A DNA stretch of 58,744 bases from assembly GCA_001793095.1 (NCBI GenBank), contig MGHG01000011.1, forward strand, positions 1-58,744, read 5' to 3'. The translations under genes were made by a program, and so were the position numbers. The notes beneath the pieces are model-generated. The model saw only the letters and a list, made by a program, of their open reading frames with translations, had not been told where the DNA came from and ran no database searches. Position 1 is the first letter of the stretch. The number at the start of each line of letters is the position of its first letter. Origin of the DNA: Candidatus Woesebacteria bacterium RIFCSPLOWO2_01_FULL_39_23. GTDB taxonomy: Bacteria; Patescibacteriota; Microgenomatia; UBA8517. Positions 56,592 through 57,446 of this stretch are shown here, in pieces.

Positions 56592-56828
56592 TTATATTAA
56601 GTGTTTATTCCTAAAAGCAAAACCAGAACTGCTTTTTAAGTATTTTTCAAAATTAGTTGCTAATTTTTGAGTTTTAAAACTGGCATAATAGACAAGCTCC
56701 AAAGGTCGGAAATTATTAGTTGCACCTATCCTCCCCTTCCTATGATTAGCAATCCTTTGTTTAATGTTTGAAGAATAACCTGAATAATACTGGCTGTTAT
56801 TCAATTTCAATATATAGACGTAATACAT
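56592..56828 (-). CDS. Small GIY-YIG nuclease (UPF0213/YhbQ-like)
   Basis: YYVYIL....YYSGYS..IKQRI..H..G...T...RP.ELVYY..F.....A..FE.YLKS..G. Confidence 0.88.
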   Translation of the reverse strand: MYYVYILKLNNSQYYSGYSSNIKQRIANHRKGRIGATNNFRPLELVYYASFKTQKLATNFEKYLKSSSGFAFRNKHLI

Positions 56829-56870
56829 TGAACGTAGTCATTGTATCGTAAATAAGAATTTATAAATACT

Positions 56871-56973
56871 GTCCCACTTCGCTAAAGCTACGCGGGACAC
56901 ACTTCGCATTTTACTTAAAAAGTGGTTTACCACGCGAAGCTACATTCATGTAAATTGAATGTAGCGAAGTGTG
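56871..56973. repeat. REP-like nested palindromes between the tmRNA 3' end and the GIY-YIG gene
   Basis: GTCCC..CTTCGCTAAAGCTAC..GGGAC; CACACTTCGC (56898)/GCGAAGTGTG (56964); GCTACATTCA-N7-TGAATGTAGC. Confidence 0.72.
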
Positions 56974-57364
56974 GAGACGGAGGGAATTGAACCCTCGTCC
57001 GAAAAAACATTATTTAAAAACTACTACAAGCTTAGCGTAGATTAAAATTTCCTTCTAAACTTACCCATACGCAGGATGCTTAAAAGTAAGACTTTAAATT
57101 TTCAGCTAAAAGCCAAAAGTCGATAGCTTTAAGCTACATCTCAACTGGTTTATGCCCAGATCAAACGGTTAAGAAACATTTGAAAGGACACCTGCTTAGG
57201 CGATTGCAAGATTGTAATCGTAAGCTGGACGCTCAAATAATTTGGCGTTTGTAAAATTTGACTCTTTTTATCCTACTCCACATAAAGTTTCGCAGGATAG
57301 GCATGTGTCGTCAAACATGGCTTGCAGTTTTTAAAAGAGCTTCTCGTCGAAACCGATCGTCCCC
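56972..57364 (-). ncRNA. ssrA: tmRNA
   Basis: 5' GGGGACGATCGGTTTCGACG; 3' GAGGGTTCAATTCCCTCCGTCTCCA with G3.U wobble; adjacent to smpB. Tag ORF at 57246-57196 reads AKLFERPAYDYNLAIA*. Confidence 0.95.
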
Positions 57365-57446
57365 CTGTTGGATAGCTTCGCATCCAACGGGGTCGTTAGA
57401 TGCTTATAGCTATCTAACTGACCCTCGTCGCCGAGTCAGACTCGGC
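57361..57446. repeat. Cluster of three hairpins between smpB and ssrA
   Basis: GTTGGAT-AGCTTCGC-ATCCAAC; GGGTCGTTAGAT...ATCTAACTGACCC; GCCGAGT-CAG-ACTCGGC. Confidence 0.7.

Follow-up and report, generated by a model that had tools for sequence, protein, structure and literature searches.

We analysed a stretch of 58,744 nucleotides (hereafter the window) from Candidatus Woesebacteria bacterium RIFCSPLOWO2_01_FULL_39_23 (GenBank assembly GCA_001793095.1, contig MGHG01000011.1). The window is contig C11 of a genome typical of the candidate phyla radiation (CPR), with 1.13 Mb in 18 contigs and a G+C content of about 39%. It carries the gene of the transfer-messenger RNA (tmRNA, ssrA), and our subject is the set of hairpins that surround this gene together with the small gene that follows it, which encodes a nuclease of the GIY-YIG family. 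On the minus strand the order is smpB, a spacer of 122 nt, the tmRNA gene, a spacer of 143 nt and a GIY-YIG open reading frame (ORF) of 78 aa (Table 1). The cassette behind the tmRNA consists of a structured spacer of about 105 nt, made of three copies of a hairpin (U1 and U2 as an inverted pair, then U3), and of the 78-aa gene. We show that this hairpin is a member of a dispersed family that goes together with one subfamily of small GIY-YIG nucleases, both across genomes and at single loci. Other contigs of the same genome are cited below as G000 with their contig number, other genomes and loci by G and L numbers.

The tmRNA encodes the tag peptide AKLFERPAYDYNLAIA and its gene has no encoded CCA, since the discriminator A at 56972 is followed by CAC. 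Both flanks of the gene fold far more stably than shuffled sequence (z=-5.4 and -5.5, with none of 200 shuffles as good). The initial annotation of the window had pointed to a 10-bp inverted repeat behind the gene that includes the last nucleotides of the RNA, and to the presence of GCGAAGC on both sides of it. The repeat (56898-56907/56964-56973) is perfect, its arms on the minus strand being CACACTTCGC at 56973-56964 and GCGAAGTGTG at 56907-56898, and just two bases of the mature RNA fall within it, the acceptor-stem C at 56973 and the discriminator A. GCGAAGC is present at 56934-56940 and, on the opposite strand, at 57375-57381. As a genome-wide signal the 7-mer failed: it is observed 79 times for 56 expected, an excess of only 1.4-fold that ranks 1558 of 8192. 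The non-random signal is a local cluster of CTTCGC/GCGAAG cores, which are parts of a repeated hairpin unit.

This unit is about 34 nt long and reads YCCN-ACTTCGCTAAAGCTWCGC-N'GGR-CAAG, i.e. a stem of 4-5 bp that covaries, a nearly invariant loop of 18 nt and a 3' CAAG. The suggestion that hairpins of the CTTCGCTAAAGCT type are a repeat is borne out, as they form a real family with a covarying stem. Because a search for the unit with a fuzzy regular expression was too noisy (18 matches for 10 in the control), we adopted a covariance model of the hairpin, R1, and counted genome copies at E<0.01. Counted over units with a stem of at least 4 bp, all four stem pairs covary (CG, UA, AU, GC). There are 11 R1 copies in this genome and 0-26 in 40 relatives, and 86 of 151 genomes sampled across the class have some. 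In public genomes at least 120 stretches contain the loop ACTTCGCTAAAGCTWCGC, where by our own estimate for 596 Gb about 35 would be expected by chance. Among the matches listed, most come from many Patescibacteria lineages and the others from metagenome-assembled genomes (MAGs) labelled Planctomycetes, Gammaproteobacteria, Cloacimonadota, Akkermansia and Flavobacteriia; at least four complementary bases directly flank the loop in 90 of these 125 matches.

The contexts of the copies are diverse. Protein genes harbour about half of them, inserted in frame, both here and in the relatives. Here these genes are four, YchF, peptidyl-tRNA hydrolase, a glycosyltransferase and a FemAB-like ORF (units at G000:C9:1064-1097, C2:7070-7103, C5:4524-4558 and C12:41296-41329), and the inserts add 10-12 aa, such as ASFAEASEGQAG. 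In YchF the protein reads NALLKRQ-ASFAEASEGQAG-LAKVANFPF, which places the insert between the P-loop and the G2 region. Of the best 30 copies in relatives, 15 fall within ORFs of 150 aa or more, and 13 of 14 share one orientation relative to the coding strand. Among the matches listed, 12 of 125 copies have a tRNA or tmRNA gene within 7 bp, and at such RNA-gene ends the terminal bases of the RNA itself (CACC/CCAC) provide one arm of the stem. In contigs of metagenomes from the habitat, U3 shows about 20-fold excess depth and many different flanks, and assemblies break at it. Time series of groundwater and sediment contain this genome at about 100% identity. The hairpin is a repeated element that evidently inserts into new places. 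No convincing empty site or strain variant was found in four metagenome runs, where the joints had short sides and low likeness and probably come from the copies of other organisms. The hairpins are a real repeat family with a covarying stem, but the label of REP (repetitive extragenic palindrome) given to them suggests a wrong picture, that of an extragenic element in high copy number, as there are some 11 copies and about half are in frame in protein genes. In habit, R1 is closer to the palindromic elements of Rickettsia than to extragenic REPs.

Some occurrences of the family deserve mention in their own right. One Patescibacteria MAG carries tandem arrays of three units with a period of 30 nt beside tRNA-Ala and tmRNA (L083:18-95 and L089:4864-4941). 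Two units of the present genome (G000:C12:125921-125955 and C1:859-892) lie in paralogous non-coding contexts, ...CTCCGTAGCC...unit...GGAGGCGAAGGGYGGTGAAA, and might represent a small RNA that was duplicated, or else a further composite repeat. In Akkermansia MAGs (L098:5293-5740, L108, L118, L130 and L139) the loop motif is found without flanking stem, in the context GCAGGGG-motif-CCACCCTAGC, and in two cases a gene of the GIY-YIG subfamily found behind the tmRNA lies at a distance of 44-79 bp. Motif and gene could there provide a cultivable test system.

Behind the tmRNA, the 10-bp repeat is the closing outer stem, U1 on U2, of a conserved module of three hairpins. U3 is the highest-scoring R1 copy of the genome. 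The loop of U1, ACTTCGC...GCTTCGC, is interrupted by a nested 10-bp palindrome (56939-56948/56956-56965), and U1 matches R1 weakly (16.8 bits, E=0.3 genome-wide, matched in a local scan); its uninterrupted equivalents in three relatives (L017, L013 and L023) reach 36-43 bits. U2 contains a small GTGG-TAAA-CCAC hairpin followed by a T run (56917-56933). The module does not look like an intrinsic terminator, in which a U run comes directly after a G+C-rich stem: U3 and most members of the family continue with CAAG, not U, and only the weak 4-bp GTGG/CCAC stem at 56922-56933 carries a T run.

Thirty relatives were compared at their tmRNA loci; each belongs to another genus of the same family or order, which makes 31 genera with the window. 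A small GIY-YIG ORF follows the tmRNA directly, and in the same orientation, in 8 of the 30 relatives; seven of these ORFs belong to one subfamily, with the C-terminus FEKYLKSSSGFAFRNKHLI, and the eighth (L018) to another. The module and the subfamily gene stand together behind the tmRNA in 8 of the 31 genera, window included, and the module stands without the gene in one more (L023). Among the relatives, R1 matches within about 150 bp behind the tmRNA are confined to the seven loci with the subfamily gene and to L023; the only other match, in L018, is about 1.1 kb away from the tmRNA. The spacers of the seven loci, the window and L023 follow a common plan, which starts with the tmRNA end CCAC(N)C, TTCGC and a variable hairpin or just TAAA, and continues with GCTTCGCG, a small GTGCGCAGCAC-type hairpin, a linker, GCGAAG(N)GTG and TCCCGCGWAGCTTTAGCGAAGTGGGACA. 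The shortest module, with 89 nt in L017, is plainly three copies of one unit: U1 is CACC-ACTTCGCTAAAGCTTCGC-GGTG, whose stem is shared with the CACC end of the tmRNA, U2 is an inverted degenerate copy, and U3 is a second inverted copy that ends 3 nt before the ATG. The 10-bp stem shows changes on both sides, being CACAC/GTGTG in the window, L002 and L021, CACTC/GAGTG in L028 and L012, and CACCAC/GTGGTG in L013 and L023. Compensatory changes are seen in L028, L012, L002, L021 and L016, the last being off by one register.

The 78-aa protein has PF01541 (residues 1-69) as its sole Pfam domain, and is a bare catalytic domain without a DNA-binding domain. Six residues, Y5, Y15, G17, R25, H29 and E61, are invariant in 15 members of the subfamily. 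The protein matches none of the NCBIfam profiles. Its nearest solved structures are those of the UPF0213 proteins 1ZG2 and 1YWL, and this kinship hints at another subgroup than cd10448 (GIY-YIG_unchar_3), that of the Ssn nucleases to which we return below.

The initial annotation had noted that two of two stable-RNA loci in the window carry a GIY-YIG gene, the other locus being tRNA-Cys, which abuts its ORF. This is true and understates the pattern. Besides UvrC the genome has 17 small GIY-YIG ORFs, and eight of them lie within 150 bp of a tRNA or tmRNA gene, where 0.38 would be expected (binomial p=3e-9); all eight are co-oriented with it. The same is true of about 23 of 30 GIY-YIG loci in 28 relatives, taking the best locus or loci per genome and a distance of 200 bp, and again all are co-oriented. 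The idea of a GIY-YIG-associated hairpin system had been made to depend on an enrichment of GIY-YIG genes beside tRNA-like genes or these repeats, and the enrichment beside tRNA-like genes exists both here and in the relatives. The second member of the subfamily in this genome (C7:18011-18247) exactly repeats the design of the tmRNA locus: the end of tRNA-Glu(CUC) is followed by a unit (17928-17961), an inverted unit (17977-18010) and the ATG. Several GIY-YIG genes are bracketed by partial duplicates of the neighbouring tRNA. Two further loci have particular structures. The 16S rRNA gene contains, close to its 5' end, a GIY-YIG ORF of 85 aa (G000:C2:29232-29489) that is bracketed by the inverted repeat CCGCCCCACAT / ATGTGGGGCGG. 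Upstream of the tRNA-Cys-linked gene, positions 998-1103 of the window hold what appears to be an older 5' part of tRNA-Cys, whose anticodon loop is split by a 30-nt double hairpin, TCTCGCAGAGCGAGA-TCCTGCTCTGCAGGA, of a type other than the tmRNA hairpin.

Hairpins and GIY-YIG genes do co-occur, and they do so for one subfamily. In a comparison of 41 genomes, the ten with a gene of the subfamily (at least 49% identity) have 2-26 hairpins, with a mean of 12.7, whereas in the 31 without it the mean is 1.9 and 15 genomes are free of hairpins (Mann-Whitney p=2e-5). When the class was sampled evenly with 151 genomes, and membership of the subfamily set at E<=1e-20, hairpins were found in 17 of 17 genomes with the subfamily against 69 of 134 without (Fisher p=3e-5). 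The association is also seen at single loci, where an R1 unit lies beside 11 of 12 subfamily genes and beside 1 of 18 other GIY-YIG genes (p=2.5e-6). It extends to other phyla: among the matches listed, ten GIY-YIG genes lie no more than 100 bp from the bare motif, and seven of them are members of the subfamily, including two in Akkermansia.

Transposases of the HUH type were considered as the enzyme of the hairpin and rejected. Genes like Y1_Tnp are present in 29 of the 41 genomes, three of them here and up to 8 per genome in relatives, and their numbers do not correlate with those of the hairpins (rho 0.26, p=0.11; for presence and absence, Fisher p=0.73). No R1 unit was found near any HUH gene. 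The three of this genome encode proteins of about 230 aa (G000:C8:7386-7616, C16:9886-10188 and C9:267058-267285).

The spacer between smpB and ssrA contains four hairpins, H1 to H4. The upstream hairpin of the initial annotation, CCCC-GTTGGAT...ATCCAAC-A-GGGG, said to pair with the first four tmRNA nucleotides, is H4 and was found as described, its outer pairing taking 3-4 of these four. The outer arms are the CCCC at 57392-57389 and the G run at 57365-57361, the mature tmRNA starting at 57364, and the end of the leader on the tmRNA strand reads CGA-CCCC-GTTGGAT-GCGAAGCT-ATCCAAC-A-G, then the mature GGGGACG. The stem of H3 differs from that of H4 by a compensatory A-T for G-C. The tract GACCCC, common to both, can pair in two ways, upstream, where it would close H3, or with the first G bases of the tmRNA, where it would close H4. 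H4 was also tried as a member of the R1 family and ruled out, since it matches only in the 8-nt loop (E=1.2); it belongs with H3 to a family GTTRGAT-N8-10-ATCYAAC that has 4 copies in the genome (those of the window at 57367-57418). The other two (G000:C4:24307-24328 and C9:150207-150230) lie in a shared structured element of about 70 nt that reads TGAGATAG...GTGACATCTCACGGGGTCCC-hairpin-TGGGAC. H2 is part of yet another repeat family (CCGAGTCNGACTCGG), which counts 9 members in the genome and none in the reversed-genome control. One of them adjoins the 3' end of tRNA-His and three are near GIY-YIG genes. Copies of this family elsewhere in the genome are at G000:C9:125456-125470, C17:46139-46153 and C7:18559-18573, and in L017 such a palindrome lies behind the tmRNA-linked GIY-YIG gene.

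Hairpins like H4 are absent from the tmRNA leaders of most relatives. In L016 a weak R1 unit ends 1 nt before the tmRNA (13.1 bits, E=0.34), and L013 has an upstream hairpin that is similar as judged by eye. Hairpins at both ends of the tmRNA recur loosely and their design is not fixed. The 3' module is made of the conserved R1 family, but the proposal of REP-like hairpins at both ends is weakened by the 5' hairpin, which belongs to another small family and is mostly not conserved. A further hairpin, of about 31 nt, lies within the tmRNA gene itself. It occupies the loop of pseudoknot PK1, where the alignment to Rfam has 45 nt for 14 in the model. This insert is missing from 13 related tmRNAs in an alignment of their 5' parts. 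It reads TATCCT-GCGAAACTTTATGTGGAGT-AGGATA and scores 12.8 bits against R1, with an E-value of 0.005 in a scan of 1.1 kb that is not significant genome-wide, and we regard it as probably a decayed R1 unit. A different resemblance concerns the leader of the tmRNA in L007 (about 1915-1975), which is clearly like that of tRNA-Glu(UUC) in the present genome (G000:C2:~22280-22340), AAGCAAAAAGCRTAAGCRATTTGCG...TTCCGACGA; this may be a promoter or leader element common to stable RNAs.

Table 1. Features of the window around the tmRNA gene and at the tRNA-Cys locus
Feature	Position	Strand	Support
smpB, tmRNA partner, directly upstream of the tmRNA gene on the same strand	57487-57918	-	Pfam SmpB, E=2e-42
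H1, CAAAATTCC-GCA-GGAATTTTG, immediately after the stop codon of smpB and not followed by a U run	57453-57473	-	
H2, palindrome GCCGAGTCAGACTCGGC, member of another repeat family	57430-57446	.	
H3, tandem paralogue of H4, stem GTTAGAT/ATCTAAC and a separate outer stem, GGGTC/GACCC	57390-57424	-	
H4, 7-bp stem GTTGGAT/ATCCAAC, 8-nt loop GCGAAGCT, outer CCCC/GGGG with the first tmRNA bases	57361-57392	-	
tmRNA gene (ssrA)	56969/56971-57364	-	ARAGORN; Rfam RF00023, 122.8 bits
Hairpin of about 31 nt inside the tmRNA gene, pseudoknot PK1 loop	57267-57301	+	
U1, hairpin unit in 'left' orientation on the tmRNA strand, stem CCAC/GTGG using the last tmRNA bases	56930-56974	-	
U2, degenerate unit whose 3' part GCGAAGTGTG (plus-strand 56898-56907) pairs with 56964-56973	56898-56929	-	
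U3, hairpin unit inverted relative to U1, GTCCC-ACTTCGCTAAAGCTACGC-GGGAC on the plus strand	56868-56901	+	R1, 49.1 bits, E=8e-11
Single-domain GIY-YIG nuclease gene (78 aa), co-oriented with the tmRNA and 143 bp behind it	56592-56828	-	PF01541, E=2e-14
Second GIY-YIG gene, of a different subfamily, stop codon overlapping the tRNA-Cys 5' end	743-997	-	
tRNA-Cys	673-744		

There are signs that the cassette turns over. On a tree of SmpB it is scattered across two families, and sister genera differ, as L028 and L016 possess the cassette while their respective sisters L004 and L019 lack it. In the second of these pairs the cassette of L016 stands in place of the terminator hairpin that L019 has between ssrA and a comF-like gene. 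Remnants are found as well: L012 retains only the C-terminal half of the subfamily gene, L023 the module alone, and stop codons or pseudogenes occur among subfamily genes (L012, G034 and G182). Sub-clades of the nuclease go with particular targets, namely tmRNA, tRNA-Ala and a tRNA-Glu/Gln-Lys cluster. A separate case is L027 (about 1854-1960). There the 3' end of the tmRNA recurs as a copy of 18 nt, AAATCCCTCCATCTCCAC, some 85 nt downstream of the gene and without a GIY-YIG ORF, which looks like the footprint of another kind of insertion at the end of ssrA.

How does this locus compare with known systems? The closest published one is that of the Ssn nucleases and their NTS/SRM hairpin repeats, typified by SsnA of Neisseria meningitidis (Chenal et al. 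2025, PMC11893778). As there, the enzyme is a single-domain GIY-YIG protein of less than 100 aa (78 aa here, about 90-100 aa for Ssn), its gene lies beside copies of a cognate dispersed hairpin, repeat and nuclease co-occur across genomes, and different lineages of nuclease pair with different hairpins. The apex of the Neisseria NTS, GCGMAVGC, is preceded by TTCCC (PMC11893778); by our own comparison it resembles the first half of the present loop, GCGWAGC, both being mini-hairpin motifs behind TCCC. Yet, the hairpin described here is not an SRM. The published pattern, HGTCWYN(0-2)YYVSBRHN(0-5)WNVSBRGN(0-2)RNCYNB (PMC11893778), is fitted by NTS and not by the consensus of our unit. Searching the genome with it gave 3 matches, all more than 500 bp away from any GIY-YIG gene, where the reversed control gave 4. 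The present loop differs by its 18 nt with two tandem GCGAAG cores, the copies are 0-26 per genome instead of hundreds, the hairpins stand on one side of the gene only, between it and the RNA gene, half of the copies are inside protein genes, and a linkage with tRNA or tmRNA genes is not mentioned for the published system (PMC11893778).

Other comparisons are more partial. With REPs and their associated tyrosine transposases (RAYTs) the family shares short dispersed palindromes, which we propose are handled as hairpins by a small dedicated nuclease encoded beside some of the copies. The candidate enzyme is however a GIY-YIG protein and not an HUH (Y1) one, HUH genes do not track the hairpins, and the copies are few (11) and often intragenic (4 here, 15 of 30 in relatives) where REPs are extragenic and many; moreover, here it is the stem that varies and the loop that is constant. 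Ogata and colleagues reportedly described in 2000 the Rickettsia palindromic elements (RPE), of roughly 100-150 bp, which are said to lie in frame in housekeeping protein genes and also in RNA genes. The likeness is that of a palindrome in frame in conserved protein genes of a bacterium with a reduced genome, without destroying them, but our unit is shorter (about 34-36 nt), has a candidate cognate nuclease and is markedly associated with tRNA and tmRNA ends. Genomic islands integrate into the 3' end of ssrA by means of tyrosine integrases, and the place of insertion is the same here. The present insert has however only about 0.35 kb, with neither an integrase ORF beside the locus nor a direct repeat of the ssrA end. 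SegB, a free-standing GIY-YIG homing endonuclease in the tRNA gene cluster of phage T4 (PMC2330249), is similar as a free-standing GIY-YIG gene among tRNA genes and by its selfish-DNA behaviour. It differs in that Seg proteins have a DNA-binding domain, which the present protein lacks, and that the host there is a phage and here a cell, in which a cognate hairpin accompanies the gene. Finally, non-intron insertions encoding GIY-YIG proteins were described in rRNA genes of CPR bacteria (Tsurumaki et al. 2024, PMC11270868). They are the same kind of small ORF in or beside stable-RNA genes, and there is one in 16S rRNA here, but that work covers rRNA only and mentions neither tRNA nor tmRNA (PMC11270868). 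We found no paper on this hairpin, on the tmRNA cassette or on a link between GIY-YIG genes and tRNA or tmRNA in CPR, in a search that left most subscription journals outside.

These data lead us to favour, with reasonable though far from complete confidence, a nuclease-hairpin pair akin to Ssn/NTS that has the look of a selfish element and for which stable-RNA genes would serve as harbour and as promoter. The nuclease would recognise the hairpin that is cognate to it, probably in the form of single-stranded DNA, in the way that SsnA recognises NTS repeats. In this form the loop could fold into a very stable GCGNAGC mini-hairpin. The work of Hirao and of Yoshizawa is said to have established that d(GCGNAGC) mini-hairpins are exceptionally stable, and the earlier remark on the mini-hairpin d(GCGAAGC) was apt, as the loop of the unit reads GCGWAGC-TTTA-GCGAAGT on one strand. 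The activity of the nuclease would then maintain or spread hairpin and gene. In L017 and L002 there is no room for a promoter of the gene itself, because the ATG follows U3 by 3-6 nt. With no visible promoter of its own in several relatives, the gene is probably read through from the strong promoter of the tmRNA or tRNA. The U1-U2 helix might mark the boundary where the stable RNA is cut free from the mRNA, and H1 to H4 might be other palindromic repeats that accumulated in the same permissive spot. One may go further and speculate that the bare GIY-YIG protein of about 80 aa is the dedicated enzyme of the 34-nt hairpin, which would spread by way of single-stranded hairpins to YCCN sites, among them the ACCA ends of tRNA and tmRNA genes and loops within these, and in frame into protein genes. 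The bases of the target itself would thereby become half of the stem, and the system would be a counterpart of RAYT/REP and TnpA/IS200. With the other nuclease-hairpin pairs of this genome it would make up an unrecognised class of miniature mobile DNA, present across phyla and living on stable-RNA genes. This whole picture is a tentative idea, to which we give less than even credit.

A number of points weigh against the nuclease-hairpin pair. The p-values given above overstate independence, because genomes share ancestry. The arms of the 10-bp stem compared between genera were picked by hand, and the count of covariation was limited to units that have a stem of at least 4 bp. The subfamily predicts hairpins, but the reverse does not hold: about half of the genomes without it bear hairpins (the 69 of 134 mentioned above), so that these persist, or move, in its absence. 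A GIY-YIG gene is near only 5 of the 30 top units in relatives and 11 of 125 among the pattern matches listed. Behind the gene, no repeat of the tmRNA end and no target duplication was found within 400 bp at 8 loci, so that nothing marks the right-hand boundary of a mobile cassette. The tree of the nuclease subfamily, built on 78 columns and compared with that of SmpB, is a comb, and an unresolved tree of this kind is fitted by one old insertion followed by many losses as well as by repeated gains. A search of metatranscriptomes gave one contig touching the region, with U3 in a different context, and no RNA from the source organism.

Among the other explanations, the nuclease might be a homing endonuclease that cuts cassette-free alleles of tmRNA and tRNA genes, repair then copying the cassette in, with the hairpins as RNA insulators or processing signals and the dispersed copies unrelated. 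Some facts fit this scenario well. At other GIY-YIG loci the partial tRNA duplicates on the far side of the gene (a 3' end of tRNA-Glu, a 3' end of tRNA-Gly, a 5' part of tRNA-Gln and a 5' half of tRNA-Gly(ccc)) are the expected footprint of the replacement of a gene end, sub-clades of nuclease match particular RNA-gene targets, and SegB of T4 provides a precedent (PMC2330249). We nevertheless find homing rather unlikely, given a bare catalytic domain of 78 aa devoid of a DNA-binding domain and the lack of a duplicated tmRNA end at the tmRNA loci. Homing would also leave unexplained the co-occurrence of subfamily and hairpin across genomes and phyla, and the hairpin copies inside protein genes. 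Somewhat less plausible still is a domesticated nuclease that benefits its host through a function in the cell, either DNA repair, as for other UPF0213 proteins, or the handling of stable-RNA genes, and that is kept in RNA operons for its expression, the hairpins being elements of processing or stability. The intact frames and invariant catalytic residues across two families, the strict co-orientation with the RNA gene, an outer stem kept by compensatory change as in selected RNA structures, and the UPF0213 proteins as nearest solved relatives, which are widespread in free-living bacteria, all agree with such a role. It is at odds with 17 diverged paralogues in a reduced genome of 1.1 Mb, with a patchy distribution in which sister genera lack the gene, with the pseudogenes and stop codons of L012, G034 and G182, and with a copy inside the 16S rRNA gene; nor would a role in RNA processing make sense for in-frame hairpins in unrelated housekeeping genes.

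The simplest possibility is that terminators and leader stems of the ordinary sort surround an RNA gene that is highly expressed, and that a GIY-YIG gene is close to it by chance. GCGAAGC is indeed unenriched genome-wide, the upstream hairpin is unconserved in most relatives, and GTGG-TAAA-CCAC-TTTTT is weakly terminator-like. This possibility is however contradicted by all the statistics of enrichment and co-occurrence, by a loop kept across phyla with a covarying stem, and by a module kept in eight other genera, and we hold it to be very improbable.

Small proteins made of a GIY-YIG domain only (UPF0213, YhbQ-like) are among the commonest uncharacterised proteins of bacteria. The partnership of nuclease and hairpin that we favour is already known in kind; what is distinctive here is that it sits on stable-RNA genes and reaches into protein genes. 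The study of Ssn provided a function for one branch of these small proteins, and argued for the biotechnological use of site-specific nucleases of single-stranded DNA (PMC11893778). The present locus offers a second and distinct nuclease-hairpin pair, with a defined candidate recognition sequence of 18 nt that is conserved from Patescibacteria to Akkermansia. It would account for a number of oddities of CPR genomes: additional hairpins within tmRNA and rRNA, short inserts that keep the frame of essential proteins, broken copies of tRNAs and assemblies that break at these repeats. If the nuclease drives the hairpins, then a selfish element shapes the ends of tRNA and tmRNA genes in these reduced genomes, and RNase P, RNase Z or the CCA-adding enzyme must cope with helices that include the mature ends of their substrates.

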